NCBI GenBank assembly: GCA_964291415.2 | Contig: OZ219918.1 | Location: forward strand, 1,120,001 to 1,184,000 | Reading direction: 5' to 3' | Length of the DNA stretch: 64,000 nucleotides | Origin: Alphaproteobacteria bacterium | GTDB taxonomy: Bacteria; Pseudomonadota; Alphaproteobacteria; SP197 | Shown: positions 9,811-59,793 of the stretch, one piece after another | How positions within the stretch are numbered: the first letter of the stretch is position 1 | Layout of the letters: each line of letters opens with the position of its first letter | Made by a program: the position numbers and the translations under genes | The notes under the pieces: model-generated | Database searches by the model: none | Told to the model about the DNA's origin: nothing | What the model saw: only the letters and a program-made list of their open reading frames with translations

Positions 9811-11433
9811 TCAGTTGAGGAAACCGGCGTCCTCGCGCACTTCGACGAGAGTAGGACCGTCGGCGTCAAAGGCCTCCGTGATGACCCCGGTGAGCGCCGA
9901 GAGGGAGGAGGGCCGTTCCGATCGTGCTCCAAAGGCGCCTGCCAGGGCTGCGAAGTCGGGATTGCGTCCCGGAGTGACACCAAGAGGTCCGATTTCGCGC
10001 TCGATCATGTCATCGCGAATCTGACCGAGACCGCCGTTGTTCCACAGCACGATCGGCAGGCCGACCTTCTCGTCGACGGCGGTGGCGAGTTCGCTTGCCG
10101 TGAAGAGGAACCCGGCATCGCCTGCGAGTGCCGCGCCGCGGCGCTCGGGCGAGCCGAGCCTGGCGCCGATGGCCGAAGGCATGGCTGATCCGAGCGTGCA
10201 GTAGCCGTTGGGATGGGTGTAGGTGCGCGGCCTGGAGGTGGGCCAGTACTCGTTGGCAAAGTATGCGATCTGGGTGGCATCGGTAATCAGCCAGCCGTCT
10301 TCGGGAATCGCAGCGCGCATGGCGTCGAGCACGGCCTTGTACCGCGCCGCGCCCGGGTTCGCGAGGAGCTGTTCCATCACCTTCCGGCGGAGATCCGCGA
10401 TGGCACCGGAACCGGTGAAGCCCGGTTGTCCTCGAGCTGCGGGCAGGGCTTCGGTCAGCATGGTCATGGTCAGCCCGGCATCGCCCAGGAGCGCGGCGTC
10501 GGGCGTATAGTCCCGGGCGAGGTTGCCGGCATCGACATCGATACGGATGAGCCGGCCCTTCAGTACGAGAAAGTCGGGCTCCTTCCAGATGTCGGTCTCG
10601 GCGAGTTCGGTGCCGACGGCAATGACGACGTCGGCTTTTTCGATGAGTTCATGCGCCAGCGGAAAGGAGAGGCAGGCGCCGCAGTTGAGAGGATGGGAGT
10701 CGGGCAAGGCACCCTTGCCGGCGATAGTGAGGAACACGGCGGCGCCCAGCCGTTCGGCGAGAGCCCGCAGGGGTTCGCCGTGGTCGATCGTTCCGCCGCC
10801 GGCGATGATGACCGGTTGCCGGGCGCCTGCAGCGATGGCGGCGGCCTTCTCGACTGCCGCCTCATCGGGCGCCAGCGGACCGGTGATGGGCGAGGTTCTC
10901 ACGGCGAACTCCGCCGTTTCGGCGATCTTGTCGATGGGGAGTTCGATGTAGCAGGGCCGGGGGCGGCTGGAGGCGAAGGTGGAGAAGGCGCGATGCACGG
11001 CGCCAGGAATCTGGCGGCCGTCGAGAATGGTCTGGGCATCGGCCGTCAGCGGCCGGATTGTCGCCAGCTGATCGGTGATTTCGTGGAGGCGTCCGCGTCC
11101 GGCGCCAAGGTCGCCGGATCCATTGGTGCTGGCAATCACCAGCATCGGCTGGCTGTCGGCATAGGCGTTGCCCACGGCGGTGGCGATGTTGGTCACTCCG
11201 GGGCCTGTGATGACGCAACAAAGGGCCGGTTTGCCGGAAATCCTCGCATGGCCATCGGCCATGAAACCGCCGCCCTGTTCGTGACGGAACAGCACGTGGC
11301 GCATGCCGGAATCGACGATGCCTCGATAGTATTCCAGGGTATGGACGCCGGGCATGCCGAAGACCGTCTCGATCCCGTAGGCCCGGACAAGCTGCATCAG
11401 CGCCTGGCCCCGGGAAAGGTTGCCACCTGCCAT
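9811..11433 (-). CDS. ThDP-dependent enzyme, 5-guanidino-2-oxopentanoate decarboxylase (AruI)-like
   Basis: FGMPGVHTLE, RHEQGGGFMADG, GRGRLHE and GDAGFLFT...WNN ThDP motif; real start at MAGGNL (11433). Confidence 0.85.
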   Translation of the reverse strand: MAGGNLSRGQALMQLVRAYGIETVFGMPGVHTLEYYRGIVDSGMRHVLFRHEQGGGFMADGHARISGKPALCCVITGPGVTNIATAVGNAYADSQPMLVIASTNGSGDLGAGRGRLHEITDQLATIRPLTADAQTILDGRQIPGAVHRAFSTFASSRPRPCYIELPIDKIAETAEFAVRTSPITGPLAPDEAAVEKAAAIAAGARQPVIIAGGGTIDHGEPLRALAERLGAAVFLTIAGKGALPDSHPLNCGACLSFPLAHELIEKADVVIAVGTELAETDIWKEPDFLVLKGRLIRIDVDAGNLARDYTPDAALLGDAGLTMTMLTEALPAARGQPGFTGSGAIADLRRKVMEQLLANPGAARYKAVLDAMRAAIPEDGWLITDATQIAYFANEYWPTSRPRTYTHPNGYCTLGSAMPSAIGARLGSPERRGAALAGDAGFLFTASELATAVDEKVGLPIVLWNNGGLGQIRDDMIEREIGPLGVTPGRNPDFAALAGAFGARSERPSSLSALTGVITEAFDADGPTLVEVREDAGFLN

Positions 11434-11505
11434 GGTCGATCTCCTTGAAGCGCATGAAACGCGGATGGTAGCCTCCCGCTCTTCGTTCGGGAACGGGAAA
11501 CCGCC

Positions 11506-12417
11506 ATGGCCTCCAATCCTCTTCGCTGCCGCGAGCCGGAAGGAAACACTCCTCAACTCACCGACTGGGGATGCAATTCCGAGTACGGTGTCCTGACCGA
11601 CGTCCTGCTCGGGCCGGCCGACCACTTCCACTGGCTCCCGACGAGTTCCATCTCCAGGGCCACCCTCAAGCGCGGAGACCGGTTCGACGCGCAGCTGGCC
11701 ATGAAACAGCACCGCGAGATGGTCGATGCATACGAGGAAGCGGGTGTGAAGGTGCATTGGCTGGAGGCCGACTCCGAACTTCCCTACCAGGTCTTTGCCA
11801 GGGACTCCTCCTTCATGACGCCCTACGGCGCCGTGGTCACCCAGATGGCCCAGTGGTGGCGGCGTGGTGAATACGGACCGGTCATTCGCTTCTACGTCGA
11901 CAACGGCATTCCGATCTTCGACATGGTGACGGCGGGGTCCTTCGAGGGAGGCGACTTCGACATCATCGAGCCGGGATGCGTCCTCATCGGCTGGTGCGGC
12001 GAACGCACCCAGGAACAGTCGGCGCATCAGGTGGGACAGTGGTTCGAGAGGGAGGGCTGGGAAGTCCGCGTGACACCGATTGCCGAACACTACGTGCACA
12101 TCGATCTCATGGTCTGCATGTTGGCCGAGAAACTCTGCGCGGTCTGTCTCGACACGACCGAACCGGCCACCGTCGACTGGCTGAAGGCCAAGGGAATCGA
12201 GATCGTGCCGGTGAACTATCCCGACACCATGGCGCTGGCCTGCAACGTGGTCTCCCTGGGCAACGACCGGGTCATTGCGCCAGCCCATGCCAGGGATCTG
12301 GTGGACCGTCTGAAGGCCCTCGGTTTCACCGTCTATGACCCCGACGTGGACTGCTTCACCCGTGGCGGTGGCGGCGTCCACTGCATGGCGCAGTCGCTGC
12401 GCCGCGAACCAGTCTGA
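11506..12417 (+). CDS. Amidinotransferase/DDAH/arginine deiminase superfamily (pentein) protein
   Basis: NSEYG, FARD, FEGGD, HID and GGGGVHC (Asp/His/Cys catalytic set). Confidence 0.9.
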   Translation: MASNPLRCREPEGNTPQLTDWGCNSEYGVLTDVLLGPADHFHWLPTSSISRATLKRGDRFDAQLAMKQHREMVDAYEEAGVKVHWLEADSELPYQVFARDSSFMTPYGAVVTQMAQWWRRGEYGPVIRFYVDNGIPIFDMVTAGSFEGGDFDIIEPGCVLIGWCGERTQEQSAHQVGQWFEREGWEVRVTPIAEHYVHIDLMVCMLAEKLCAVCLDTTEPATVDWLKAKGIEIVPVNYPDTMALACNVVSLGNDRVIAPAHARDLVDRLKALGFTVYDPDVDCFTRGGGGVHCMAQSLRREPV

Positions 12418-12430
12418 GCGGAGACCATCG

Positions 12431-13201
12431 ATGTCACAAGCGGTCATGATCGTCACCGGAGGCAGCCGCGGAATCGGTGCGGAGATTGCCCGCCTGGCCG
12501 GCAGGCGGGGCTATGATGTTGCGGTCAACTATTCCGCCTCCAGGGACCGCGCCGAAGAGGTGGCAGAGTCGATCCGGGCTGAAGGCCGCCGCGCCGCCGC
12601 CATCCGTGCCGACGTCTCCCGGCCCGATGACATCGAGTCTCTCTTCGAGGAGACCGACCGCCTGCTCGGCGCGCCGGCGGCGCTGGTCAACAACGCCGGA
12701 ATCTCGGTCGAGACGCCGGTGGCTGATCACGAGGTCGACGCGGTCAGGCGGATCATCGACACCAATCTCCTCGGGCCGGCGCTGACCAGTCGCCAGGCGA
12801 TCCGCCGCATGTCGACGGCAAGGGGCGGCAATGGTGGCGTGATCGTCAACGTGTCATCGATCTCCGGGGTCTACGGCGGATTGCCGGGTGACGTCGTCTA
12901 TGCCGCCACCAAGGGCGGACTCGATTCCTTCACCCTGGGTCTCGCCAAGGAAGTGGCGGGGGAGGGGATTCGCGTGTGCTGTGTGCGCCCCGGCCTCATC
13001 AAGACCGAAATCTGGGACGATGGCATGGGACAGGACGAGGTGATCGAACTCGGCGAGCGTGCCGTTCCGTTGGGCCGCATTGGCGAGGTCGGAGACATCG
13101 CCACGGCGGTCCTGTGGATGTGTTCCGACGAGGCAGCCTATGTCACGGGCGCCATTCTCAATGTCAGCGGCGGCCGCGAGACGTTCGTGCGCGGCGGCTG
13201 A
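12431..13201 (+). CDS. SDR family oxidoreductase
   Basis: TGGSRGIG, NNAG, YAATK. Confidence 0.92.
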   Translation: MSQAVMIVTGGSRGIGAEIARLAGRRGYDVAVNYSASRDRAEEVAESIRAEGRRAAAIRADVSRPDDIESLFEETDRLLGAPAALVNNAGISVETPVADHEVDAVRRIIDTNLLGPALTSRQAIRRMSTARGGNGGVIVNVSSISGVYGGLPGDVVYAATKGGLDSFTLGLAKEVAGEGIRVCCVRPGLIKTEIWDDGMGQDEVIELGERAVPLGRIGEVGDIATAVLWMCSDEAAYVTGAILNVSGGRETFVRGG

Positions 13202-13215
13202 TCAGGGTCTGCGGC

Positions 13216-14013
13216 CTATCGTCCGGTGAACCGGGGCTTGCGCTTTTCTGCAAAGGCGCGCGGGCCTTCCTTGGCATCGTCGCTGGCGAGCATGCGCGAG
13301 TAGATCGGCAGACCGCCTCCACGCAATGTCCGGAAGCAGTCGGGAACCGACATGTGCATGGTGTGGCGTACCGCCTCCTTGGTGGCCTGCAGCGCCAGCG
13401 GCCCGCCCTCGGCGAGGTGATCCGCGGTCTCACGGGCCCTGGTCATCAGTTCTTCCGCCTCCACGATCTCGTTGACAAGACCCCACTTGAGGGCCTCTTC
13501 GGCGCCCATGCGGCGGCCGCTGAGCAGGATGTCCATGGCGACCGAATGAGGCAGGCGCCGGGGCAGGATCTGGATGGCGCCGGCGTCGGCGATGAAGCCC
13601 ATGTGCACGTCCGGGATGAAGAACGTGGCGTGGGGCACCGCGTACTGGATGTCGCTGGCCAGGGCGATTTCCCAGCCGCCGCCCACGGCATACCCATTGA
13701 TGGCGGCAATGACCGGCTTGTAGAGATTCCACATCTCCGTAATGCCGGCGAAGCCACCGTCGACCTCGTCGTCCTCGCCGGCGCCGCCGGCATCGAAGTC
13801 GCGTGCCGCCTCCTTGAGATCCCAACCCGGAGAAAAGAACTTGTCGCCGGCGCCGGTGACGATACCCACCAGAAGATCGGGGTCGTCGCGCAATGTCGCG
13901 AAGGCCCGGGAAAGGCCCGCCGTCACCTTGCGGCCGATGGCATTGGCCGGCGGATTGTCGATGGTGATTTCGAGGACCTTGCCCCGACGTTCGCAATGGA
14001 CCACGTCACTCAT
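13216..14013 (-). CDS. Enoyl-CoA hydratase, carnitinyl-CoA dehydratase (CaiD)-like
   Basis: FFSPGWDLK, GGFAGITE, AINGYAVGGGWE and EGPRAFAEKRKP. Confidence 0.88.
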   Translation of the reverse strand: MSDVVHCERRGKVLEITIDNPPANAIGRKVTAGLSRAFATLRDDPDLLVGIVTGAGDKFFSPGWDLKEAARDFDAGGAGEDDEVDGGFAGITEMWNLYKPVIAAINGYAVGGGWEIALASDIQYAVPHATFFIPDVHMGFIADAGAIQILPRRLPHSVAMDILLSGRRMGAEEALKWGLVNEIVEAEELMTRARETADHLAEGGPLALQATKEAVRHTMHMSVPDCFRTLRGGGLPIYSRMLASDDAKEGPRAFAEKRKPRFTGR

Positions 14014-14016
14014 GGT

Positions 14017-16131
14017 TCAAGTCTCCGTTCCGGTCATTCTCATCAAGCAGTCGGCAACCACGACCCCGCCACCCCGGGGCATGACGAGAAGCGGGTTGAT
14101 GTCGAGCTCCGCGAGGCTTGCAGGATGTTCTGCTGCAAGGGCGGCCACGGCCATGACTGCATCGACGAGGGCCTCCGCGTCACCAGACGGCGCCCCCCTG
14201 TACCCTTCGAGAAGGCGCGAAACCTTCAGGGATCCGATGGCCCGATGCACGTCCTCGCGTTCGAGAGGGAGAAGCAGGACGACAGCATCCTCGACAAGCT
14301 CGACGAAGGTGCCGCCGGCGCCGATGATCAGCACCTGCCCGAAGGTGCTGTCGCGTGTCACGCCGATAATCATTTCGGCCACGTGGCCGGTGACCATGGC
14401 TTCAACCAGGACCTCCCTGACACCGGTGTTGCGGACGATGGTCCCCGCCGCCCGGTCAACCTCGCGGTGATCGGTGAGGTTGAGGGCGACCCCACCGGCC
14501 TCGGTCTTGTGGGCAATCGTGGCTGACAGTGCCTTCACGACCACCGGATAGCCGATACGCTCGGCGGCGGATGCGGCTGCTGCAGGGCGGACGCACTCAC
14601 CGGACGGGATTGTCAGTCCGGAGGCGGCGAGAACCTGCTTGCCTTCCCGTTCATCAAGGGTCCGCACGTCGCCGGCAAGGGTGACCGGCGCGGCAAGGGC
14701 GCGATCACCGGGCGCCGGGCGGGACAGGAACGCGTTCCGCCTGGTGCCGTAGAGGCAGGCCCGCGCCAGGGAGAGCGTGCCCGCCCTGATGCCGTGGGTC
14801 ATGGCGATGCCGGCTTCGTGAAACTGCTTGCGGAGTCTGATGGAGGTGTTGTCGGGAAGCGACGACGTGATGACGCCGGGAATGCCGTGCCGGAGCACCG
14901 ACGTGTGGAAGGCGCGCATGGCCGCCGCGGCGCCATCATCCTGCGAGCGGGCGCGAGGCATCTGTTCCGTATCGGCGATTGCGTCGACCACCAGCAGTCC
15001 GGCGTCGATCCCCTGGCGCAGCATCACGGGAAAGATGGCTTCCAGGACGTCCTGCCGGCCCCAGTTGGAGGTGTTGTAGTCGAGTGGATTGGCAATCGTC
15101 GTGAAAGCCTGCATGTGACGGGCGATGTCGTCGCGCTGGCGCTGGTCAAGTTCCGGCAATTCGATTCCAAGGGGTTCCACGATATCGGCAACACATCCCG
15201 AATCGCCTCCTGAACATGTCATCACGGCAAGCCGGAGTCCTTCGGGAATGCCCGTCACCGACACCACCTTTGCGGTTTCCAGCAGATCCTCCGGAGTCTC
15301 AACCCGGATGATGTTGAGCCGGTCGAAGAGTGCCTGATAGAACCTGTCGTCACCGGCAAGGGATGCGGTGTGACTCATGGCCATGGAAGCGCCTTTCCTG
15401 GAGACGCCGGACTTGAGCACGATGATGGGCTTGCCGGCCTCGAGGGCGCGCACCGCGGCCCGGCTGAAAGCCGCGGCGTCGGGCAGCGTTTCCATGAAGA
15501 GAGCGAAAGAGGTGACGGCGGGATCGTCGACCAGCACCTCGATGTAGTCGGCAAAGTCGAGAACGGCCTGATTGCCGCAGGAAATGACGTGGGAGAGCGG
15601 CGTGCCGCGCCGGCCGTTGGCGACGTTGATGCAGATGTTGCCGCTCTGCCCGATGAACGCGCATCCCCTGGTGGTTCTCTCCCCCAGGGTCGGCGTCGCC
15701 ATCGCCAGGGCGCCGTTGACGAAGTTGTTGAAGCCGTAGCAGTTGGGTCCGATGACCGCGAGATTGCCTGCTCGTTGCCGGAGTTCCCCTTCCAGGGTGA
15801 GGCCTTCTCCGCCGACTTCCGCATAGCCTGCCGCATAGCAGATGGCGCCTCCGGCCCCCATGTCATCGAGTTCGGCAATCAGGTCATTGGTCATCTCCCG
15901 GTTGACCGCCAGGAAGACGACATCGGGCGGCGTATCGAGTTCGTCGATGGATCCCAGGCAACGTTCGCCAGCGATCTCCTGCCGCCGAGGATTGACGACG
16001 CGAATATCACCGGCAAACCCCAGGTTCCGGGTCGCGGCGATGGCCGGTTCGAGGAAGGAGCCGCCGATGTAGCAAATGCTGTCCGGATAAAGGGCGCGTC
16101 GAAGGTTTGCGTGACGGGCCGTGCGGGACAT
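14017..16131 (-). CDS. Acetate-CoA ligase (ADP-forming) family acyl-CoA synthetase
   Basis: GPNCYG, QSGN, SHTASLAG (phospho-His), HKTEAGGV and ELDINPL ATP-grasp domain; start at MSRTAR (16131). Confidence 0.9.
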   Translation of the reverse strand: MSRTARHANLRRALYPDSICYIGGSFLEPAIAATRNLGFAGDIRVVNPRRQEIAGERCLGSIDELDTPPDVVFLAVNREMTNDLIAELDDMGAGGAICYAAGYAEVGGEGLTLEGELRQRAGNLAVIGPNCYGFNNFVNGALAMATPTLGERTTRGCAFIGQSGNICINVANGRRGTPLSHVISCGNQAVLDFADYIEVLVDDPAVTSFALFMETLPDAAAFSRAAVRALEAGKPIIVLKSGVSRKGASMAMSHTASLAGDDRFYQALFDRLNIIRVETPEDLLETAKVVSVTGIPEGLRLAVMTCSGGDSGCVADIVEPLGIELPELDQRQRDDIARHMQAFTTIANPLDYNTSNWGRQDVLEAIFPVMLRQGIDAGLLVVDAIADTEQMPRARSQDDGAAAAMRAFHTSVLRHGIPGVITSSLPDNTSIRLRKQFHEAGIAMTHGIRAGTLSLARACLYGTRRNAFLSRPAPGDRALAAPVTLAGDVRTLDEREGKQVLAASGLTIPSGECVRPAAAASAAERIGYPVVVKALSATIAHKTEAGGVALNLTDHREVDRAAGTIVRNTGVREVLVEAMVTGHVAEMIIGVTRDSTFGQVLIIGAGGTFVELVEDAVVLLLPLEREDVHRAIGSLKVSRLLEGYRGAPSGDAEALVDAVMAVAALAAEHPASLAELDINPLLVMPRGGGVVVADCLMRMTGTET

Positions 16132-16257
16132 GTCAGGCGGACACCATGGAAAACGATTCGGATGGCATCGGGAACGAATGATCCCTCGCGGGCGGGCGCC
16201 GGACAAGGATGAGGGCAACACGCCAGGAGAGGCAATGCCCGTGACCAGGGCAGCGGC

Positions 16258-17514
16258 CTACCATTTGGCTGTGCGTCCCAGATCGCGGTCCATGTGGTCG
16301 CGCAAGGCCGATTCGGTCAGCACCTGGGAGGTTCTCACGACCGTCACGAAATCGCGCTGTTCGTCCATCGGCACCGGTGCGCGCCGCGTCATGCGGTAGA
16401 GGGCGAAAGCACCAAGCAGCATCATGGCCGTCGCCGGGAACCAGAAGTAGCCCGCCGGTCCGGCAATCTGCATCATCGCGCCTGCGGCGGTCGGCCCGAG
16501 GATGCCGCCGATCCCGGCGGCGAGCAGCAGCCCGCTGGAGGCGGCCACCATCTGCTCCGGTTGGAGATGATCGTTCGTGTGCGCGATCGAGAGCGAATAG
16601 AGCGGCGACAGGAAACACCCGACAACCGCCACGGCGATGATCTGAATCAGGGGTTCAGGACCGGCGAAAAGAGCCGCAAGGCTGGCGGCGGCACCGCCCG
16701 CGAATGCCACGATCGTCAGGATCTTCCGGCGATCGAAGCGATCGCTCAGTCGGCCGATCGGCCAGATCAGGATCATGCCGCCGACGATGGTGGCCGCCGT
16801 GAAGAGGGAGACATTGCCGACGTCCATGCCAAGGCCCGTGCCGTAGAGTGACGCCAGCCAGACAAGAGCCCCCGAGGTGGCGCCATTGGTGAAGCAGCCG
16901 GCGACTCCCAGTGGCGATGTTCTCACCAGTTCGACGACTCCGAGTCTGGCCGGGTTCTCGAAGTGTGGTGCGGGATAGGTGGTGAGTGACACCGGCAACA
17001 CGGCCAGGGAGACGAGGATGGAAGCGGTCATGAAGAGTAGAGGACCGGCGGGGTCCGCAACATTGAGGAGCAGAGGACCGACTGCCATCGAGCCGGACAT
17101 GGCGATGATGTAGACTCCGAGCAACTGACCGCGTGTCTCGTTTGTCGAGCGGTCGTTCAGCCAGCTTTCGGCGATGATGAAGAGGCCGATGTTGCAGAAG
17201 CCGGTGAGAATTCGCAGCACGGCCCACGTGGCGGCATCGACGACAACCGCGTGGCCCAGGGCCGAGATCGAGGCCAGCGAGGCAAGCGCCGTGAACACGC
17301 GGATGTGACCCACGCGCTCTACAAGACGGGGCACCGCGAGAGCACCGAGGACAAACCCGAAGTAGTAGCTCGACATGATGATGCCGGTCACAAGATTCGG
17401 AAAGCCGGCCGACGGCGCTCGCAGGCCGAGAAGCGAGCCTTGAAGGGCGTTGCCGGACATCAGCAGGGAGATGCTGACGATGACCGCCCAGACGCCGAAG
17501 ATCGCTGCAATCAA
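16258..17514 (-). CDS. MFS transporter (YcaD-like)
   Basis: 12-TM pattern; RVGHIRVF, ESWLND and GRLSDRFDRR. Confidence 0.9.
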   Translation of the reverse strand: MIAAIFGVWAVIVSISLLMSGNALQGSLLGLRAPSAGFPNLVTGIIMSSYYFGFVLGALAVPRLVERVGHIRVFTALASLASISALGHAVVVDAATWAVLRILTGFCNIGLFIIAESWLNDRSTNETRGQLLGVYIIAMSGSMAVGPLLLNVADPAGPLLFMTASILVSLAVLPVSLTTYPAPHFENPARLGVVELVRTSPLGVAGCFTNGATSGALVWLASLYGTGLGMDVGNVSLFTAATIVGGMILIWPIGRLSDRFDRRKILTIVAFAGGAAASLAALFAGPEPLIQIIAVAVVGCFLSPLYSLSIAHTNDHLQPEQMVAASSGLLLAAGIGGILGPTAAGAMMQIAGPAGYFWFPATAMMLLGAFALYRMTRRAPVPMDEQRDFVTVVRTSQVLTESALRDHMDRDLGRTAKW

Positions 17515-17640
17515 GGGTGTGGGTTCCCGCGCAGATGAGGCTGCCGCCTATGCCCTATCGGAGCGCATGAATCCAGTCCGAAAGTGCCGGTTTCCGGCAT
17601 CGCGCCTGACAGCGACCGGGCCGGGTTCGGGCCGAAGCCG

Positions 17641-19350
17641 TCACATGAGGAAGTAGCGCCTGGAGAGAGCCACGTGATGGATGGGAGGGACGTCGAGGAG
17701 AACGCCGTCGGCATGGACTTCGAAGGTTCCCGGATCGACCCAGATCTGCGGCAGGGCGTCATTGCGAACCATGTCCTTTTTGGAAAGATGCCGTGTACCC
17801 GTTGCCGGCAGCAATGTCCGGCCGAGGCCGAGCCTTCGATCGAGACCGCTGTCGATGGCGAGGGGATGGACGAAGACGAACGACACCCGGTCGGGAGCGC
17901 CGCCGCAGGCGGGCCAGGACTCGCGATACACGAGGGGTTCGCTTATCGACAGCGATGCCGCCGCCGTGCCGGACGGACTCCACACCTCGGCGCCAGCCTT
18001 GAAGACCTGCTGTGCCTTGACCCCGAAGAACTCCGGGCGCCACAGCACGATATCGGCGATCTTGCCGACCTCGATGCTGCCGACATCTCCGGCGATGCCG
18101 AAGGTGATGGCCGGGTTGATGGTCACCTTGGCGAGGTAACGCAGGATCCGGGCATTGTCCGCGTTGTCGAAGGGTTCGTCGCCAAGCGGTCCCCGGCGAT
18201 CCTTCATCGCTGAGGCGAGGCGCCACATGCCAGCGATCACATCCATCACCCGCCCCATCCCCTCGGCGTCGGAGCCGGCCATGGAGATGGCGCCGAGGTC
18301 GTGCAGCACGTCTTCGGCGGCCATGGACTGGGGGCGCAGCCGGCTCTCGGCGAAGGCGACATCCTCCGGCACGTCCCCTCGCAGGGTATGGCACAGCATC
18401 ATCATGTCCATGTGCTCGCCCAGGGCATTGAGGGTGAAGGGGTTCGTGGGTGTGGTGGAGGACGGCAGGCAATGGCGTTCTCCGTTGCAGCGAATGATGT
18501 CGGGCGCATGTCCGCCACCGGCGCCCTCGGTGTGGTACATGTGAATGGTACGGCCCGCGATGGCCTCCATCGTTGCCTCGTAAAACCCCGATTCGTTCAT
18601 CGAGTCGGTGTGCAGCTGGACCTGGAAGTCCAGCTGGTCGGCAACGCCGAGACAGGTGTCGATGAGAGCCGGCGTGGCCCCGAGGTCCTCGTGGATCTTC
18701 ACGCCAATGACACCGGAGGCCAGCTGTTCCTCGATGGCGGCAGGCCGGCTGGCGCCGCCGCGGCTGAAGAGACCGAAGTTCATCGGATAGCGCCGGATCG
18801 CCTGCAGCATGATGGCGTTCGCCCAGCCGCCGCCGCTGTCGGTGGTCCAGCACCCCGCAAATCCACCGCCGATCATCGTGGTGAGGCCGGCAGAAAGCGC
18901 GTGCCACACCTCGGCCGGCTGCAGGTAGTGGGCATGGACGTCGATTCCTCCCGGCGTGGCGATCAGCCCCTGTCCGTTGATGTGCTTGGTTCCCGGACCG
19001 ATCACCATGTCCGGCGAGACACCCGCCATGAAGGCGGGATTGCCGGCCTTGCCGATGGCATGGATGCGACCGTCGCGCACACCGACGTCCGCCTTGTAGA
19101 TGCCGCCGACAGGGCACATGACCACGACATTGCAGAAGACGGTCTCGAGAGCTCCCTCGTCGAGTCTGAGGCCGCCGTGAATGCCGGCGTCGCCACGCAG
19201 GGTCTTGCCGAGGCCCGTGATCCCTTCCTCGCCATGGGTGGCGTGGTCGTGTTCGATGCGGGCAATGAGGCTGGTGTCGCCAAGGCGGATGCGGTCTCCC
19301 GTGGTGGGTCCGAAGAGGGCCGCATAGCGTTCCCGGGTCATCGTTGCCAT
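17641..19350 (-). CDS. ureC: Urease alpha subunit homologue (divergent)
   Basis: GPTTGDRIRLGDT, GGIDVHAH, KIHED, HTDSMNESG, HTEGAGGGHAPDI, MLCH and SDAEGMGR; the substrate loop is divergent. Confidence 0.85.
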   Translation of the reverse strand: MATMTRERYAALFGPTTGDRIRLGDTSLIARIEHDHATHGEEGITGLGKTLRGDAGIHGGLRLDEGALETVFCNVVVMCPVGGIYKADVGVRDGRIHAIGKAGNPAFMAGVSPDMVIGPGTKHINGQGLIATPGGIDVHAHYLQPAEVWHALSAGLTTMIGGGFAGCWTTDSGGGWANAIMLQAIRRYPMNFGLFSRGGASRPAAIEEQLASGVIGVKIHEDLGATPALIDTCLGVADQLDFQVQLHTDSMNESGFYEATMEAIAGRTIHMYHTEGAGGGHAPDIIRCNGERHCLPSSTTPTNPFTLNALGEHMDMMMLCHTLRGDVPEDVAFAESRLRPQSMAAEDVLHDLGAISMAGSDAEGMGRVMDVIAGMWRLASAMKDRRGPLGDEPFDNADNARILRYLAKVTINPAITFGIAGDVGSIEVGKIADIVLWRPEFFGVKAQQVFKAGAEVWSPSGTAAASLSISEPLVYRESWPACGGAPDRVSFVFVHPLAIDSGLDRRLGLGRTLLPATGTRHLSKKDMVRNDALPQIWVDPGTFEVHADGVLLDVPPIHHVALSRRYFLM

Positions 19351-19352
19351 GG

Positions 19353-20048
19353 TCAGGCCCCCCGGAATCCGCGCTCGCGGGCCCGGGCGAGGGCCCGCTC
19401 CCGGACATCCGGATCGTGGATGTTGCCCTCGGTAAGGCGATTGAACCCCTGGATGTCACCGCTTCCGGCGATGGCGGTCAGCATCACAGTGCGGTGTTCG
19501 CCCGGATCGAACCGGGCGCTCGCTCCGGCGGGAAGATCAAGACGCCTGCCGAAGGCCGCAGCACGATCGAACTCGAGGTCGCGGTTGGCCTCGAAGAAGT
19601 GATAGTGGCTGGCCACGTGGATCGGCCGGTCGCCGTGGTTGAGAACAGTGAGTTCGGTCTTGGCGCTGCCGTCGTTGAGAGTGATGTCGCCCTCGCCAAC
19701 CAGCAATTCTCCGGGACGGCAGGCGGTATCCGACGCCTGGATTCCAGGACGAACCGGTTGCCAGACGGTGACTGTCTTCAGGCCGTCGTCGAACTGGGCA
19801 TCGACGTTGACGAGATCGATCATCTCCGCCACGCCGGGGAGTACGTCATCGGTCGTCAGGAGTGCCGCGGCGGCACTGCGGACCTCGGCCAGCGTGCGCC
19901 CGTCACGGGCGGCCTCCATGATTTCGTCGGCGATCAGCGCCACCGCCTCGGGCTGATTCAGCCTGAGGCCACGGGCCCTTCGCTTGCGTGCGAGCTCCGC
20001 CGCCGTGAAGAGGGTCAAGCGGTCGATTTCCGCGGGTGTGAGCATCAT
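19353..20048 (-). CDS. ureAB: Fused urease gamma-beta subunit
   Basis: Gamma domain LTPAEIDRL...RGLRLNQPEA, then beta domain GDRPIHVASHYHFFEAN...RFDPGE. Confidence 0.9.
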   Translation of the reverse strand: MMLTPAEIDRLTLFTAAELARKRRARGLRLNQPEAVALIADEIMEAARDGRTLAEVRSAAAALLTTDDVLPGVAEMIDLVNVDAQFDDGLKTVTVWQPVRPGIQASDTACRPGELLVGEGDITLNDGSAKTELTVLNHGDRPIHVASHYHFFEANRDLEFDRAAAFGRRLDLPAGASARFDPGEHRTVMLTAIAGSGDIQGFNRLTEGNIHDPDVRERALARARERGFRGA

Positions 20049-20104
20049 GGGTCAGGTGTTCTCCGGTGTTGCGAAGTCGGCAGGTGGCGCCATCGCCCTC
20101 TCGC

Positions 20105-20560
20105 TCAGGGGTCGAAAGCACGGTGAACGATGCGGTCGCCAGGTTCGAGACCCAGCCGCCGGGAGGTCCCGGCGAGCACCTCGAGGACACCGGCTGCCGG
20201 GGCGCCGGAAGGGATGGACGTCTCGTCGAGCGGTCGGGCGTCGGCGGCGATGGAGACGATCACTCCGTGACGGTCGAGAAAGATGATGTCGAGGGGAAGA
20301 TAGGTGTTCTTCATCCAGAAGCTGCGCGGAGCTTCCCTGGTGTAGAGAAACAGCATGCCCTCGTCTTCGGCCATGGTCTTGCGGAACATGAGCCCGCGGG
20401 AACGCTGTTGAGGCGTGACGGCGAGGTCCACATGGAATGTCCACGACAGGTTGTCCGCGGTGACGACGTCCAGGACGTCCCTGGCAAATGTGATGTCGTC
20501 CTCCGCGGCGGCCGGGAAGGCGATCGCTACCACCAGAACGCGCAGCAGCCGGGAACACAA
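20105..20560 (-). CDS. DUF192 domain protein (exported)
   Basis: RGLMFR, GMLF, FWMKNTYLPLDIIF and VLEV; signal peptide; TTG start inferred. Confidence 0.85.
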   Translation of the reverse strand: MCSRLLRVLVVAIAFPAAAEDDITFARDVLDVVTADNLSWTFHVDLAVTPQQRSRGLMFRKTMAEDEGMLFLYTREAPRSFWMKNTYLPLDIIFLDRHGVIVSIAADARPLDETSIPSGAPAAGVLEVLAGTSRRLGLEPGDRIVHRAFDP

Positions 20561-20621
20561 GCCTTGTCCCCGCTTCGCTCTTGGGCATACTCGGGCGGGC
20601 CACGTGAATGGAGAGGGTGCT

Positions 20622-21098
20622 GTGGGTCGCATGATCAGCCTCGCGGTCGTGCTCTTGGGCGTATGGTTCGTCCTCAGTGGCTCCACCGACCCGTTTCTTC
20701 TCGCATCGGGTGTCGTCAGCGTGCTGCTTGTCGTGATCATTGCCCATCGCATGGGAATGATCGACGAGGAAGGGTTTCCGATCCAGCTTCTTGGCCGGGT
20801 GATCCTCTACCTGCCCTGGCTCGTCTGCCAGATTGCGATTGCCAACCTTGCCGTGGCACGCACCATCCTTGCTCCGTCGATGAAGCTCGATTCCGGGTCG
20901 GCCTGGGTGCCGGCCAGCCAGAAGACAGCGGTGGGTCTCGTCGTGTTCGCCAATTCGATCACCCTGACTCCGGGCACTGTCTCCCTGTCGGTTCTCGAGG
21001 ACCGCATCCACGTGCACGCTCTTTCCAGGAAGAGTCTCGAAGACCTGCATCAGGGCGAAATGGATCGCCGGGTCAGCGCCGTCGAGGGCCGGCGCTGA
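20622..21098 (+). CDS. mnhE: Mrp/Mnh Na+/H+ antiporter subunit E
   Basis: ANSITLTPGT and HVHAL; start either GTG 20622 or ATG 20631. Confidence 0.92.
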   Translation: MGRMISLAVVLLGVWFVLSGSTDPFLLASGVVSVLLVVIIAHRMGMIDEEGFPIQLLGRVILYLPWLVCQIAIANLAVARTILAPSMKLDSGSAWVPASQKTAVGLVVFANSITLTPGTVSLSVLEDRIHVHALSRKSLEDLHQGEMDRRVSAVEGRR

Positions 21099-27905: not shown

Positions 27906-28487
27906 ATGAATCTGTCCGGCGAATACCGCATCAATGCACCACGCGGCGTGGTGTGGCAGGCTCTCAATGATCCTGTCATCCTGCGCCAGGCGATACCGGG
28001 CTGCGAGACGGTGGAACAGGAATCGTCAACTGCCTTCACCGCCCGGGTGAAGGCGAAGATCGGTCCCGTTTCAGCGGTCTTTGCCGGCAGGGTCGAACTG
28101 AAGGACCTTGATCCCCCCAGGGGATGCGTGCTCAGCGCGGAAGGCAAGGGAGGTGCGGCAGGCTTCGCCAGCGGCGATGCGCGAATCACCCTTCGCGAGG
28201 ACGGACAGGATACGCTCCTTGGATATGAGGCCGAAGGGAGGGTCGGAGGCAAGCTCGCCCAGGTGGGAGGGCGCCTTGTGGAGGCCAGCGCCACCAAGAT
28301 TGCCAACACCTTCTTCAGCCGTCTCGACGGCCTCGTTGCGCCTCAGGAGACACCGCCGCCTGCGCCCGCCGAGCAGTCTCCTCCGGCCGGTCACAGAGTG
28401 CGGGATGTTGCTCTGGAGCGGGTGTTCATCGTCCTGGCGGTCGCTGCGGTGAGCGCCCTCGGTATCGTTGCGGCCTTCCTTCAGTGA
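27906..28487 (+). CDS. coxG: CoxG (SRPBCC) protein with C-terminal membrane anchor
   Basis: [15 protein letters not shown] and [12 protein letters not shown]; hydrophobic C-terminus. Confidence 0.9.
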
Positions 28488-28500
28488 GGGAGAATTTCAG

Positions 28501-28980
<480 letters not shown>

Positions 28981-28986
28981 AGACCC

Positions 28987-29775
28987 GTGTACGCCTTCCG
29001 CTACCACCGCGCCGGGTCGATCGACGAGGCCGTGCGCCTCCACGGGAGCTGCGAGGATCCAGGCTACCTCGCCGGCGGTCACACGTTGCTGCCGACGCTC
29101 AAGATGCGCCTCGCCCAGCCAAGCGATCTCATCGACCTGGTGTCCATCGACGCGCTGAGACACACCTCCGCCGATACGGGCGCGCTCACCATCGGAGCCG
29201 GTGTGCGTCACAACGACGTGGCGCGCATGACGCACCCCATTCCGGCACTCGCCGGTCTCGCTGGCGGAATCGGTGACTTCCAGGTGCGCAACCGGGGCAC
29301 GCTCGGCGGTTCGATCGCCAATGCGGATCCGGCCGCGGACTATCCGGCGGCCCTGGTGGGCCTTGGCGCCACAATCGTCACCGACCGTCGGCGGATTGCC
29401 GCAGATGATTTCTTCGTCGACCTCTTCGAGACGGCACTCGAGGAAGGCGAACTCGTCACCTCGGTCGTCTTTCCCGCTCCGCGCCGCGCGGCCTACATGA
29501 AGTTCCCGAATCCGGCGTCACGCTATGCCATTGTCGGTGTCTTCGTCGCCTGGACCGCATCGGGCATACGCGTGGCCGTCACTGGGGCGGGCGCTCGTGT
29601 CTTTCGCGTGGCCGACATGGAGACGGCACTTGCCCGCGACTTCTCCCCCGATGCCGTCGCCGACATCCGGATTCCTGATGACGGCCTCAACAGCGACATC
29701 CACGCCACATCCGATTATCGCGCCCACCTCGTTACGGTGATGGCCAGAAGGGCCGTCGCCTGCGCCAACGCCTGA
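28987..29775 (+). CDS. coxM: CoxM/CutM FAD-binding subunit of a molybdenum hydroxylase
   Basis: AGGHTLLP, QVRNRGTLGGS and DPAAD. Confidence 0.92.
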   Translation: MYAFRYHRAGSIDEAVRLHGSCEDPGYLAGGHTLLPTLKMRLAQPSDLIDLVSIDALRHTSADTGALTIGAGVRHNDVARMTHPIPALAGLAGGIGDFQVRNRGTLGGSIANADPAADYPAALVGLGATIVTDRRRIAADDFFVDLFETALEEGELVTSVVFPAPRRAAYMKFPNPASRYAIVGVFVAWTASGIRVAVTGAGARVFRVADMETALARDFSPDAVADIRIPDDGLNSDIHATSDYRAHLVTVMARRAVACANA

Positions 29776-29859: not shown

Positions 29860-30822
29860 TTACGAGTTGTGGTGTGCGGCGCGCGCTTCCGCGAGCAGGC
29901 AGAGAATCTCGTACATCATGGTGGCTCCGACCAGGGCGGTGTTTCCCGTCTGGTCGAACGGCGGCGCCACCTCCACGACATCGCCGCCGCGAAGGTCCAG
30001 GCCGCGCAGGCCCCTGAGCAGCTTTTGCGCATCGATCGTCGTGATGCCGCCGACTTCCGGGGTTCCGGTGCCGGGCGCATAGACCGGGTCGAGGCCGTCC
30101 ACGTCGAACGAGATGTACGTCGGGCCGCCGCCGACCACGCGGCGCGCCTCCTCGATCGTCGCGTCGACGCCCATGTCGTCGAACTCTTCCATGAAGACCA
30201 CGCGCATCCCCTGATCCAGGGAAAAGTCCCAGCCTTCCGACGTGTTCTGCGCGCCTCGGATACCGATCTGAATCGTTCGCTTCGGATCCAGGAGACCGTC
30301 TTCGACGGCTCGCCGGAAGGGGGCGCCGTGGGTGAACTTGGACCCCTGGAATTCGTCCCAGGTGTCGGTGTGGGCATCGATATGGACCATGCCCAGACTC
30401 TCGTCGGCCGCGATCGCCTTGAAGATGGGATAGGTGATCGAATGATCGCCGCCGGCCGTCAGCGGAAACGCGCGGTGCCGATGCACCTCGCGGTAGAACG
30501 CGGCAATCTCCTCGACGACTGCTTCATCCTCGAAAATCCGGGTGAAACGAACATCACCGAGATCCGCCACCCTGCACAGTTCATAGGGGTTGCAGCGCGA
30601 CACGTGATGGATGGAGCGCATGAGGCTCGACATGTTCCGGATTTCGCGCGGACCGTGACGGGCACCGGCCCGGTTCGTCGTCCCGCCGTCATAGGGCACG
30701 CCGATCAACGCAATGTCGACACCTTCGGCGCTGGCGGCGTATGGCGTGCGCATGAAGGTCGCGATTTCGCCGTAACGAGGCGCAACCATCGGGTCGAATC
30801 CTGTTGCCTGTCGCTCATTCAC
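29860..30822 (-). CDS. Agmatinase/guanidino-acid ureohydrolase
   Basis: GGDHSIT, DAHTD and SFDVDGLDP Mn-binding motifs; GTG start 30822 with GGAG RBS. Confidence 0.92.
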   Translation of the reverse strand: MNERQATGFDPMVAPRYGEIATFMRTPYAASAEGVDIALIGVPYDGGTTNRAGARHGPREIRNMSSLMRSIHHVSRCNPYELCRVADLGDVRFTRIFEDEAVVEEIAAFYREVHRHRAFPLTAGGDHSITYPIFKAIAADESLGMVHIDAHTDTWDEFQGSKFTHGAPFRRAVEDGLLDPKRTIQIGIRGAQNTSEGWDFSLDQGMRVVFMEEFDDMGVDATIEEARRVVGGGPTYISFDVDGLDPVYAPGTGTPEVGGITTIDAQKLLRGLRGLDLRGGDVVEVAPPFDQTGNTALVGATMMYEILCLLAEARAAHHNS

Positions 30823-30977
30823 GGACCGTTCTCCCTCTGTCCGGGCGGTCAGAGTCATGCCGTTCGAGGAGACAAGACACCCGCCTGGCACGGTGAATTC
30901 GACACCACATTCCGATCGCCAAGCAATTCAATACTATGCATAGACTCTTCGATAAATCATCGATGTAGCGTGGCTTC

Positions 30978-47772: not shown

Positions 47773-48612
47773 ATGTCTGATATCGCAGTGCATCCCTATT
47801 CCACTGCCATCGGCGCAGAAGTGGTGGGAATCGATCTGTCCCGGGCGCTCGACGACAAGACGTGGTCAGTGTTGCACGACGCCTACCTGGATCACCTCGT
47901 CCTGTTCTTTCGCGATCAGAACCTCACACCCGAGCAACAGGTCGCCTTTTCGCGTCGCTTCGGCCGCCTCGAGGAGTATCCCTTCGTGCATGGAATCGAC
48001 GGCTTCCCCGAGCTCATCGAAATCGTCAAGGAGCCAGACGAAGTCATCAATTTCGGCCATCTCTGGCACACGGACATGACCTTTCGCGAACAACCGCCGG
48101 CCGGCGCGGTTCTCTACGCGCTCGAGGTTCCCCCGGTCGGCGGCGATACACTGTTCGCCAACATGTACCTTGCCTGGGACATGCTGTCGGAGGGCATGAA
48201 GACCGTGCTGCGTCAACTCCGCGCGGTCCACGATTCGGGCACACCGAAACGCCATACCGCCACCTTCAAGGGAATGAAGATGCAGCACAGGCGGGGATCG
48301 GAGCAGCAGATCACGGCCCACCCCTTTGTCCGGACGCACCCCGAAACCGGCCGGGAGTCACTCCTCATCTCCCCCAGCTACTGCCACCGCATCGAAGGCA
48401 TGACCGACGAGGAGAGCCGGATGATCCTTGACTACCTCGAGCGCCATGCGACCCGGGACATCTTCACCTGCCGCTTTCGCTGGCAGCCCGGTACCGTCGT
48501 CATCTGGGACAATCGCTGCACCATGCACATCGCCCTCGAGGACGACCTTGCCGCCATTCGCGGCAACCGGGGCTTCCGTCGCGTCATGCGGCGCGCCACC
48601 ATTGGTGGCTGA
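47773..48612 (+). CDS. TauD/TfdA Fe(II)/2-oxoglutarate dioxygenase
   Basis: WHTD, GGDTLFAN, HPFVRTHPETGR and WDNRCTMH. Confidence 0.93.
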   Translation: MSDIAVHPYSTAIGAEVVGIDLSRALDDKTWSVLHDAYLDHLVLFFRDQNLTPEQQVAFSRRFGRLEEYPFVHGIDGFPELIEIVKEPDEVINFGHLWHTDMTFREQPPAGAVLYALEVPPVGGDTLFANMYLAWDMLSEGMKTVLRQLRAVHDSGTPKRHTATFKGMKMQHRRGSEQQITAHPFVRTHPETGRESLLISPSYCHRIEGMTDEESRMILDYLERHATRDIFTCRFRWQPGTVVIWDNRCTMHIALEDDLAAIRGNRGFRRVMRRATIGG

Positions 48613-48911
48613 TGCCACGTGCGACAGTGCTGCCATGCGTGTTCGCAGCAGGTGCCGCGGATCGAGCGCTGCATGTTCATCGCGGGCAAGTTGCATGAAT
48701 TCTCAATGAAATCCAATACCACACTGTAATAGTGAAACAAAATCTCTTCCCCTCAACATCGCATGACGGATGAAGCAGGGCCGGGGACCAAGTCGAGTGT
48801 AGAGTTTCTGCAGATTTTGATGGTGCCCAGTCACCCTGAATGCCCGACCATCCGCAACGGATGCCCCGGATGGGCTATCCTCGCCTGGATGGCAGATTAG
48901 GGAGAACATGG

Positions 48912-50735: not shown

Positions 50736-51520
50736 CGCCGCGAAGCGTGGGGTGCGAGCAGACGAGCATGCTGGTGGACCGCCTCCCGGGAAAGATCGCT
50801 TGAAGGCGGTTGCTCCAGAATGAGATTGCCCTCGTGGCGCCCCCTCACCGCCATGGCCGATACCGGCGGCCCGCCGGTCCACCTGATGCGTCCCGGGAGA
50901 TAGCGAATGCAGATCCCCGTTCGTGGATTGTCCGTCGTGTTCGCTCCGGAGCCATGAACCAGCAGGGCGTGGTGGAGCGACATGGCGCCGGGTTCGAGTT
51001 CGTTGTCGTAAACCGGCCACGCCGCAGTATCGATCCTCGCAGTCTGGCCGTGAGACAGCATGTTGTCCGCACCCAGGCGTTCGTCGTGGACCACGCGGCC
51101 GAGCCGGTGGGATCCCTCAAGGAAGCGCATGCAGCCGTTGGCGGAGGTCGCCGGCGTCAGAGCAACCCAGGCCGTGACGATGTCGAGCGGATCGAGGTTC
51201 CAGTAGCCGGCATCCTGGTGAAAGGAGATGTGGCGCCGGTCTCGCGCGGGCTTGGTCCAGATGTCTGCGCTCATCACCATGATGTCCGGACCCGTCAGCC
51301 GCTCCACCGCATCGAGGATCGCGGGCCGGCGGACCAGCCGGTCCATCCACGTGAAGAGCAGATAGGACTTGTAGTACCAGGGGTGCGGCAGGTCGACGTC
51401 GACCGCTTCGAGCCAGGCGAGGGTAAGGGCGGCATCATCAGCCGGCATGGCGACGAGCGGCGCCGCAAATCCCGAGGCGCGATAATCCCCGATGTCGTGC
51501 CGTGTTCCCGACGCCGTCAT
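50720..51520 (-). CDS. Phytanoyl-CoA dioxygenase (PhyH) family protein
   Basis: FHQD, NGCMRFLEGSH and HGSGAN...R. Confidence 0.9.
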   Translation of the reverse strand: MTASGTRHDIGDYRASGFAAPLVAMPADDAALTLAWLEAVDVDLPHPWYYKSYLLFTWMDRLVRRPAILDAVERLTGPDIMVMSADIWTKPARDRRHISFHQDAGYWNLDPLDIVTAWVALTPATSANGCMRFLEGSHRLGRVVHDERLGADNMLSHGQTARIDTAAWPVYDNELEPGAMSLHHALLVHGSGANTTDNPRTGICIRYLPGRIRWTGGPPVSAMAVRGRHEGNLILEQPPSSDLSREAVHQHARLLAPHASRRYVTF

Positions 51521-51566
51521 TCTTGCAGTACACTCCGCCCCGACAAGACTACCGCCAGGAGATACC

Positions 51567-52574: not shown

Positions 52575-52640
52575 CGAGGCGCACGGCAGTTTCAGGGGTC
52601 GGTGCCGTCCGGCCTCCAGTGAAGAAACCGGTTCTCATGC

Positions 52641-56704: not shown

Positions 56705-56773
56705 GCCAACGCCCTCGAATGCGGGACAACCATGATAGCGGCGGTCTCGACGACTGAAGTGTCTGCAGGATGG

Positions 56774-57970: not shown

Positions 57971-58136
57971 GGTGGCACCCCCTGGCGAATCGACACCACA
58001 AAATGTGTCACAACCGTGTTTTGGCGACAAGCGGGAAGTGTTCCGATGAATCCCATGGTCACCTTCTGCAACGATCCTGACAAGAATGCCGGGCCGCTGG
58101 TAGACTTGGCGCATCGTCTGATCGGATTGAAATGCC

Positions 58137-58889: not shown

Positions 58890-58892
58890 AGT

Positions 58893-59654: not shown

Positions 59655-59793
59655 GATCCTTCAAGCTCCATGCCGCCACAGGCAAAGACGATAGGCGAGG
59701 CCGCGGTAGCGCGGCAACCATCGAGCGTTGCAGCGGCTGCTTCCTGGGCGCACCATGTTCCTTCTGGAGACGGAAAATATGGAGAGCAGACCC

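Follow-up and report, generated by a model that had tools for sequence, protein, structure and literature searches.

What kind of enzyme is encoded by a urease-like gene pair that stands apart from all accessory genes and has changed loops around an intact metal site? The question is raised by a 64,000-nucleotide stretch of an alphaproteobacterial genome (GenBank assembly GCA_964291415.2, contig OZ219918.1, positions 1,120,001 to 1,184,000), hereafter the window, in which the genes ureAB2 and ureC2 lie side by side on the minus strand. Urease is the textbook example of near-absolute substrate specificity, with an active site that is almost invariant. A first-pass annotation of the window, made from its letters alone, had read the pair as a urease paralogue with a rebuilt substrate pocket, acting on another substrate, using another metal, or both.

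Here, we report that UreC2, the catalytic subunit, is a member of a distinct and selectively maintained subfamily, which we name the GCW clade. Our committed reading is that UreC2 would be a specialised isoform whose substrate is urea or a very near analogue, and we lean modestly towards the pair being a working urease-family enzyme with a two-nickel centre, loaded in trans by a detached ureE-F-G-D cluster.

The module and its active site

Both open reading frames (ORFs) of the earlier annotation exist, and they are separated by 2 nt between the end of ureAB2 and the start of ureC2:

19353-20048, minus strand: ureAB2 (P0004), fused urease gamma/beta, 231 amino acids (aa), with Pfam Urease_gamma at residues 1-99 and Urease_beta at residues 112-208
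17641-19350, minus strand: ureC2 (P0003), urease alpha-type catalytic subunit of the GCW clade, 569 aa, with Pfam and NCBIfam matches

The fusion of gamma and beta, already proposed in the first-pass annotation, is borne out by the presence of both Pfam domains in the 231-aa ORF and by a score of 324.9 bits against NCBIfam NF009671 ("bifunctional urease subunit gamma/beta", cut-off 243). In all 18 clade loci, ureAB is placed directly upstream of ureC. The domains of ureC2 are PF00449 Urease_alpha (134.3 bits) and PF01979 Amidohydro_1 (198.1 bits); the protein narrowly passes the general urease-alpha equivalog TIGR01792 (700.5, cut-off 680) and also passes the subfamily model NF009686 (737.2, cut-off 354). 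Among the matches listed, all 32 solved-structure sequences matching UreC2 at E<=1e-50 are ureases, with similar scores. The AlphaFold model of UreC2 (predicted local distance difference test, pLDDT, 87.5; predicted template modelling score, pTM, 0.93) was compared with solved structures using Foldseek, giving template modelling (TM) scores of 0.95-0.97 against 39 listed urease alpha chains at 43-49% identity. The nearest solved ureases thus reach at most 49% identity and none is a close relative.

Motifs were checked by translation, by HMMER alignment to Klebsiella aerogenes UreC and by MAFFT alignment with 15 other UreC sequences. The metal ligands are H139/H141 (HAH), K218 (the carbamylation lysine, in KIHEDLG), H247 (HTD), H273 (HTEG) and D361 (SDAEGMG), matching His134, His136, carbamylated Lys217, His246, His272 and Asp360 of K. 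aerogenes, and they are invariant across a 71-row UreC alignment. Also present are the catalytic and substrate residues H220, D222, C320-H321 (flap, CHT) and R337 (ESR), whose K. aerogenes equivalents are His219, Asp221, flap Cys319-His320 and Arg336; His220 is again invariant in the 71 rows, and the GAGGGH stretch is kept. In this respect the earlier statement that all metallocentre ligands, the flap Cys-His and the ESR arginine are retained was correct, and the readings EDLG, CHT and SDAEGMG (Ala363 to Gly) were likewise confirmed in translation.

The segment from GGG to W has 12 residues in UreC2 (FAGCWTTDSGGG) and 16 in K. aerogenes (TGPAAGTHATTCTPGP), so the four-residue deletion described earlier is real in both the HMMER and the MAFFT alignment. 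The canonical loop GGGTGPAxGTxATTCTPGPW, bearing Ala167, is absent, as is canonical SDSQAMG with Ala363, for which UreC2 has SDAEGMG. The claim of a tryptophan at the Ala167 position stands only in part, as MAFFT puts W168 under Ala167, whereas HMMER puts it under His166 and leaves Ala167 deleted. The codons concerned, located by translation and alignment, are:

18823..18870, minus strand: active-site loop, residues 161-176, GGG-FAGCWTTDSGGG-W, 4 residues under the canonical length, with the clade-specific Gly166-Cys167-Trp168
18679..18699, minus strand: KIHEDLG (K218, H220, D222), Leu replacing the canonical Trp
18385..18393, minus strand: flap Cys320-His321-Thr322, Cys-His retained
18253..18273, minus strand: SDAEGMG (D361 ligand; Glu363 for Gln; Gly364 at the K. 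aerogenes Ala363 position)

In urease of Sporosarcina pasteurii, as described in PMC7433671, the backbone carbonyl oxygens of Ala170 and Ala366 bind the urea nitrogens, the C-beta of Ala366 contacts the Ni2-side water, and the equivalent of His220 is a hydrogen-bond donor to the urea carbonyl oxygen. Ala170 and Ala366 correspond to K. aerogenes Ala167 and Ala363 (numbering from the HMMER alignment), and because both act via their backbone carbonyls in that account, a side-chain swap alone need not abolish urea binding.

A conserved subfamily of urease alpha subunits

We define the GCW clade by the loop [FWY][AP]GCW..DSGG.WAN, the motif KIHED[LIV]G, Glu at position 363 and monophyly, all of which are found for UreC2. 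The clade is conserved across 65-98% identity. Among the 46 nearest clusters at 90% identity (P0005-P0050, 64-95% identical), 44 match [FWYH][AP]G.W..DSGG.[WF].N together with KIHED[LIV]G; one of the two non-matching clusters is a 535-aa fragment, and the other was assigned to the clade by the analysis of clade-specific positions given below. With features that recur in 44 of 46 clusters and at 18 independent loci, chance is not an issue.

A clade sharing this loop exists and is monophyletic with both FastTree and IQ-TREE. In the FastTree phylogeny of 134 rows, 36 clade rows fall into one group with a local support of 100, and in an IQ-TREE quick search with 55 rows the 16 clade rows do so with an SH-aLRT of 100 (both trees unrooted). 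The clade is sister to P0051 and P0052 and is nested among the types that we name HGPLF and LGPITVG after their loops and further short-loop types; canonical long-loop ureases form a group of their own, with 40 rows in the FastTree phylogeny. Pairwise ratios of nonsynonymous to synonymous substitution rates (dN/dS) for ureC2 are 0.059-0.095 against six orthologues with dS<0.45, and all 12 orthologues measured have an uninterrupted reading frame of 569 aa. UreC2 is therefore a true paralogue, as first suggested.

Positions were called clade-specific when conservation inside the clade reached 90% or more and no more than 10% of the sequences outside shared the residue, using 32 clade rows against 39 others. 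There are 16 of them: K122, H123, Q144, E147, P165, G166, C167, W168, A177, N178, M251, M317, L338, M343, E363 and M369. Glu363, at a site beside the ligand Asp361, occurs in 31 of the 32 clade rows, while 31 of the 39 others have Gln. At the Trp position of EDWG the clade has L, I or V throughout, with Y, F, L or W found in other short-loop types. The residue after the flap histidine varies within the clade (T, S, M or K), and CHT is consequently not the distinguishing feature that it had been taken for.

Two further searches bear on the extent of the clade. A representative library clustered at 50% identity does not resolve it, its ureases collapsing into few representatives that are 49-50% identical to UreC2. 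A metagenome scan with P0040 returned the contig of P0040 itself (L146) as the sole new GCW locus, the other 79 loci being other urease types.

Features shared with other short-loop ureases

Several of the pocket changes that had been described as a rebuilding recur in ureases encoded within full ureEF-AB-C-GD operons. Many non-GCW ureases in ureE-F-AB-C-G-D operons, for example in Mycobacterium spp., Kordiimonadales, Limibaculum and Hyphomicrobium loci, likewise have a shortened loop of 12-13 residues, with Gly in place of Ala363 and an aromatic residue in place of Ala167. Gly at the former site is common to all short-loop types, and Phe occupies the latter in 28 of the 39 non-clade rows. The gamma/beta fusion is also found together with canonical long loops. 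At least one accessory gene is nearby in 58 of 62 non-GCW genome loci (the remaining four are contigs of 2.5-6.8 kb), and LGPITVG-type loci in our 401-genome sample of the class have accessory neighbours in 14 of 14 cases. The Foldseek search gave no solved structure of any short-loop urease, and we know of no biochemistry for the short-loop fused ureases.

In two loci of a short-loop type from Kordiimonadales and Limibaculum (L026:1756-8133 and L039:1529-8115), the urease genes are preceded by an Urt-like ABC transporter that scores far under the urea-transporter cut-offs. An amidase of the PRK07235 subfamily is also located upstream (789 and 807 bits), and L039 has in addition an AtzE-like amidohydrolase. 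These are hints that other short-loop "ureases" may also be part of wider amide or urea-derivative pathways.

Paralogues, accessory genes and nickel supply

The genome has a second urease pair at G000:C1:918063-920453 (L007:9064-11460). It is of the HGPLF type, 60% identical to UreC2, and reads HGPLFSIDSGGAW, KVHEDYG, SDSMGMG and, at the flap, AVHH, without the flap Cys. Its fused ureAB shifts frame once near L007:9412-9470, while the orthologues in related genomes are in one frame; the change represents either a pseudogene or an assembly error. Among ten relatives carrying the GCW type, nine have one or two further ureC genes, of the HGPLF type in six genomes, the LGPITVG type in four and the canonical type in one. 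In the remaining genome (G407), the GCW type is the only Urease_alpha match, and ureE, F, G and D are retained at 80-93% identity to those of the genome studied here.

Accessory genes and a nickel transporter had been reported as missing from the 64 kb, which is true there but not of the genome. Neither tblastn with the genome's own UreE, F, G, D and NicO (E<=0.01) nor Pfam scans of the called ORFs found homologues of UreD/E/F/G or NicO in the window. An intact ureE-F-G-D cluster is located at G000:C2:512671-515308 (L008:7672-10312), 622 kb from ureAB2-ureC2 on the same contig, which also carries a NicO-family transporter at C2:602618-604072. Hence, looking for a urease operon elsewhere in the genome yielded a stand-alone ureEFGD and the second short-loop paralogue of the HGPLF type. 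Within the stand-alone cluster, 16 nt lie between ureF and ureG, where many relatives hold ureAB-ureC, as if the structural genes had moved out. In the genome as a whole (completeness 100% and contamination 8.99% as given), HupE/UreJ had no match, UrtA had only matches under its cut-off (best 229 against 493), and urea carboxylase had none above cut-off, only partial matches of the biotin-carboxylase type.

All ten other genomes holding the GCW clade have ureG above cut-off. The HGPLF and LGPITVG paralogues of this lineage are detached as well, with no accessory match within 1.5 kb (L089-L093, L133-L138), and in a sister genus of the same family the LGPITVG type is still flanked by ureF, ureG and ureD (L107). 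With all three paralogue types set apart from the accessory genes, the separation belongs to these genomes and not to the GCW enzyme. The main reason for thinking the GCW enzyme a client of UreEFGD is G407, which keeps these genes with the GCW type as its sole ureC. From these comparisons, nickel loading in trans by UreEFGD appears more likely than an accessory-free or iron enzyme.

Gene neighbourhood and distribution

The genes considered around the module in the window are the following:

16258..17514, minus strand: major facilitator superfamily (MFS) transporter, Pfam MFS_1, 126 nt downstream of ureC2
14017-16221, minus strand: ADP-forming acyl-CoA synthetase (ACS), Pfam and NCBIfam matches, gap of 36 nt
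13216-14013, minus strand: CaiD-like enoyl-CoA hydratase (ECH), Pfam and NCBIfam matches, gap of 3 nt
12335-13201, plus strand: SDR, convergent to MFS-ACS-ECH
11506-12417, plus strand: DDAH-like protein, also convergent to MFS-ACS-ECH; about 79 bits against DDAH models, under their cut-offs
9811-11460, minus strand: AruI-like thiamine pyrophosphate (TPP) decarboxylase, NF005712 "5-guanidino-2-oxopentanoate decarboxylase", 571 bits, cut-off 500
29860-30891: agmatinase-family ureohydrolase, with a LysR regulator and an NMT1/THI5-type ABC transporter as neighbours

The MFS gene is likely co-transcribed with ureAB2-ureC2, and in 15 of 17 genome loci an orthologue of it lies no more than 10 kb from ureC. 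Orthologues of ACS, ECH, the DDAH-like protein and SDR accompany the module in 12 of the 17, down to 74% UreC identity. Members at 72-76% identity (L022-L024) have acyl-CoA dehydrogenase, ACS, ECH, SDR, ATP-grasp, pyridoxal phosphate (PLP)-decarboxylase and MFS genes as neighbours. In L146, at 68% identity, the pair is found among housekeeping genes (MutL, RsmD, pseudouridine synthase), and MFS, ACS, ECH, DDAH-like and SDR genes are absent. The link to this context is suggestive, yet it may be synteny inherited from the common ancestor of close relatives. The agmatinase-family enzyme would release urea, which counts in favour of our main reading together with the lack of a urea carboxylase above cut-off. 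A scan of 12800-20900 for promoter and terminator consensus sequences gave no promoters and one terminator-like site, inside the MFS gene, fewer than in shuffled sequences.

Several observations on the surroundings are recorded here in their own right. The DDAH-like protein is 86-98% conserved among relatives, more than UreC2. In one relative (L011:10001-19783), the ureC match ends at residue 563 and the 8 kb downstream are without the MFS, ACS and ECH of the closest relatives; this locus terminates at the start of its record. Positions 47773-61225 of the window are dense in catabolic genes for small nitrogen compounds, with three TauD-family dioxygenases (one gamma-butyrobetaine-hydroxylase-like), hydantoinase/oxoprolinase A and B, DUF1989, a class II aldolase and several SDRs. 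Positions 27906-29775 hold molybdenum hydroxylase CoxG-like, [2Fe-2S] and FAD-binding subunits, with no adjoining large-subunit gene among the scanned ORFs. At 20105-21098, a DUF192 gene (minus strand) and mnhE (plus strand) share about 340 nt when each is taken as its longest ORF; as their Pfam domains are separate (20126-20437 and 20646-21075), both genes probably begin downstream of their first start codons.

Of the 401 genomes sampled, only the present one and another of its genus have a match of at least 70% identity. The clade loci are labelled as uncultured Alphaproteobacteria or Rhodospirillaceae, and the stretch or close relatives of it are present in many runs labelled sponge metagenome. 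Contigs from one sponge-metagenome RNA library cover ureC2, ureAB2, ACS and ECH and differ from them at about 3-4 of every 100 letters (about 96-97% likeness), with DNA carry-over being possible; parts of the stretch that these contigs leave uncovered are no sign of silence.

Interpretation and alternative explanations

The results above establish intact genes, a complete catalytic set, clade membership, purifying selection, accessory genes in the genome and coexisting paralogues; for the scheme that we favour, we infer the nickel, the maturation in trans, the substrate and the hydrolysis of a carbamoyl or amide group. Sponge-associated Alphaproteobacteria of this lineage have up to three two-gene modules (GCW, HGPLF and LGPITVG) dispersed in their genomes, at a distance from the one stand-alone ureE-F-G-D maturation cluster. 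That cluster, 622 kb away in the genome studied here, would most likely load nickel into UreC2 in trans. The carbonyl oxygen of a carbamoyl or amide group would then bind Ni1, aided by His220, the bridging hydroxide would attack, and the flap His321 would protonate the leaving nitrogen, as in canonical urease. Regarding the substrate, we give urea itself, turned over by a specialised isoform, an even chance.

Several results weigh against this reading. A number of the 16 clade-specific positions, including Cys167, Trp168, Glu363, Met251 and Met317, appear from the alignment to cluster in metal-ligand and pocket loops. UreC2 scores under the cut-off in three of four NCBIfam urease-alpha equivalogs (NF009685, 680.6 against 907; NF009834, 636.4 against 1001; NF010591, 618.3 against 1083) and also fails the Helicobacter pylori UreB model; the failing models miss by 230-470 bits. 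It is difficult to see why a genome should keep two to three paralogues if urea were the substrate of each. The GCW clade is found beside accessory genes in none of 18 loci (none within 10 kb), and maturation in trans is deduced from co-occurrence only, as ureEFGD could serve another ureC in nine of the ten relatives. G407, finally, is a single metagenome-assembled genome that may be incomplete.

A changed substrate is a live possibility because of the paralogue status, the coexistence with other ureC genes and the clade substitutions in active-site loops. The earlier proposal of a urease paralogue acting on another substrate is thus upheld as to the paralogue and possible as to the substrate, but several of the pocket features cited for it are not special. 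Specifically, UreC2 could be a neofunctionalised paralogue that uses a mono-substituted urea, a ureido acid or a small aliphatic amide instead of urea, with another ureC as the real urease; we regard this as a serious contender of somewhat less than even probability. Candidate substrates may be 3-ureidopropionate, 4-ureidobutyrate, hydantoate, N-carbamoylsarcosine or citrulline, and an acid product would be passed on to the proteins of the neighbouring MFS, ADP-forming acyl-CoA synthetase and enoyl-CoA hydratase genes. Such a role is consistent with the second or third ureC alongside in this genome and nine of ten relatives, with the many clade-specific positions in loops around the metal site, and with Gly364, which lacks the C-beta that contacts the Ni2-side water in the S. 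pasteurii enzyme (PMC7433671). The same-strand proximity to MFS-ACS-ECH and its recurrence across loci (MFS in 15 of 17; ACS, ECH, DDAH-like and SDR in 12 of 17) point the same way, as do the distant members L022-L024, which are again found among acyl-CoA dehydrogenase, ACS, ECH, SDR, ATP-grasp and MFS genes. The neighbours further include a DDAH-like protein, from a family that makes ureido products, and an AruI-like guanidino-oxoacid decarboxylase, and other short-loop ureases stand beside amidase and AtzE-like genes and Urt-like transporters under the urea cut-offs. However, every residue known for urea binding and activation is kept, the context is lost in L146 and may be ancestral inheritance, and the GCW type is the sole ureC in G407, while the other paralogue of the present genome has a frame-shifted ureAB. 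Moreover, a full-text literature search gave no urease-family enzyme with a non-urea physiological substrate. Full-text searching for non-urea urease-like enzymes, fused ureAB without accessory genes and sponge-symbiont paralogues gave nothing on the GCW clade, in a coverage that leaves out most subscription journals, and the "urease-like operon" of PMC2680597 is a table entry only.

In the boldest version of this idea, the enzyme of the GCW clade would depend on nickel and hydrolyse a mono-substituted urea, a ureido acid or a small amide that the linked MFS imports, making it the first in the urease family to have a physiological substrate other than urea. It would form part of a three-paralogue "urease toolkit" (GCW, HGPLF, LGPITVG) sharing one detached UreEFGD in sponge-associated Alphaproteobacteria. 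We put this forward tentatively, as roughly a one-in-three proposition.

Maturation without accessory proteins, or with another metal, would be compatible with any substrate, and we consider it unlikely. It would be in line with the two-gene layout, with the absence of accessory genes within 10 kb in 18 of 18 loci and with the clade-specific Cys167 and Glu363, which the alignment places near the metal site. We know of no sequence signature for iron. Accessory-independent ureases are on record, namely UreA2B2 of Helicobacter mustelae (iron) and ureABC of Bacillus subtilis (PMC6737895). Yet accessory genes occur in 11 of 11 genomes including this one (scored by ureG in the ten relatives), G407 retains ureEFGD with the GCW type as sole ureC, all three paralogue types are detached in the lineage, so that detachment is not enzyme-specific, and UreB2 of H. 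mustelae, at 46% identity, does not stand nearer than other ureases, its loop being of the long canonical kind. On these grounds we disfavour the accessory-free or iron enzyme of the first-pass annotation.

A hydrolase of guanidine or a guanidino acid, in which Glu363 and aromatic residues would hold the guanidinium and which would make urea for the second paralogue, is very improbable. The AruI-like, DDAH-like and agmatinase-family neighbours and the Gln-to-Glu change beside a metal ligand would suit it, but the invariant His220, a hydrogen-bond donor to the urea carbonyl oxygen in PMC7433671, suits a carbonyl and not a guanidinium. Additionally, an Rfam scan of the window at gathering thresholds returned 0 matches, hence no riboswitch or other RNA family, and the guanidino neighbours are lost at 68% identity. 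Finally, a decaying or non-catalytic relic under relaxed selection, to which the divergent motifs and the marginal pass of the general equivalog model could be ascribed, is essentially excluded by monophyly, dN/dS of 0.06-0.10, the intact frame in 12 of 12 orthologues, the motif in 44 of 46 clusters and the retention of all catalytic residues.

Significance and comparison with known systems

The GCW clade keeps the catalytic machinery of urease, rewrites the surrounding loops and coexists with one or two paralogues and a single detached maturation cluster. It would thus be a natural experiment in the redeployment of a nickel centre and in the maturation of several apo-enzymes by one UreDEFG set. 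Should the substrate differ, genome annotations of these genes as "urease" would give a false picture of urea use among sponge symbionts and other marine bacteria; if the enzyme is an ordinary urease, the Ala167 loop tolerates far more change than solved structures suggest.

With the canonical nickel urease UreABC of K. aerogenes and S. pasteurii, the module shares the alpha fold, the six ligands including the carbamylated lysine, the catalytic residues, the gamma and beta parts and the presence of ureDEFG in the genome, at 48-49% identity to K. aerogenes UreC and 45-46% to S. pasteurii UreC. UreC2 differs in its loop, which is four residues shorter and reads FAGCW, in EDLG for EDWG and in SDAEGMG for SDSQAMG, and the module differs in the fusion of gamma and beta and in the 622 kb between its structural genes and ureEFGD.

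The short-loop fused ureases of ureE-F-AB-C-G-D operons (the LGPITVG type of many Alphaproteobacteria; Mycobacterium spp., Kordiimonadales, Limibaculum, Hyphomicrobium) are alike in the fused ureAB, the 12-13-residue loop and Gly at the Ala363 position, and they belong to the same half of the UreC tree. These ureases have accessory genes on both sides and mostly EDWG, SDSQGMG and CHH, whereas the GCW clade has PGCW, Glu363, Gln144, Glu147, Met251 and Met317 and is never beside accessory genes.

The analogy with H. mustelae UreA2B2, drawn in the first-pass annotation, extends to the layout only. According to PMC6737895, this accessory-free iron urease is likewise a two-gene module of fused gamma/beta and alpha, a second urease alongside another, with no adjacent accessory genes. 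Specific kinship is not apparent, as UreB2 has the canonical long loop, 46% identity to UreC2 and a score (3qga_C, 561 bits) like that of other ureases, and the lineage studied here retains ureEFGD even where the GCW type is the sole ureC (G407). The ureABC genes of B. subtilis, another accessory-free case in the same paper, are similar in that structural genes stand without neighbouring accessory genes. B. subtilis, as portrayed there, is without ureDEFG altogether, whereas the genome studied here has ureEFGD.

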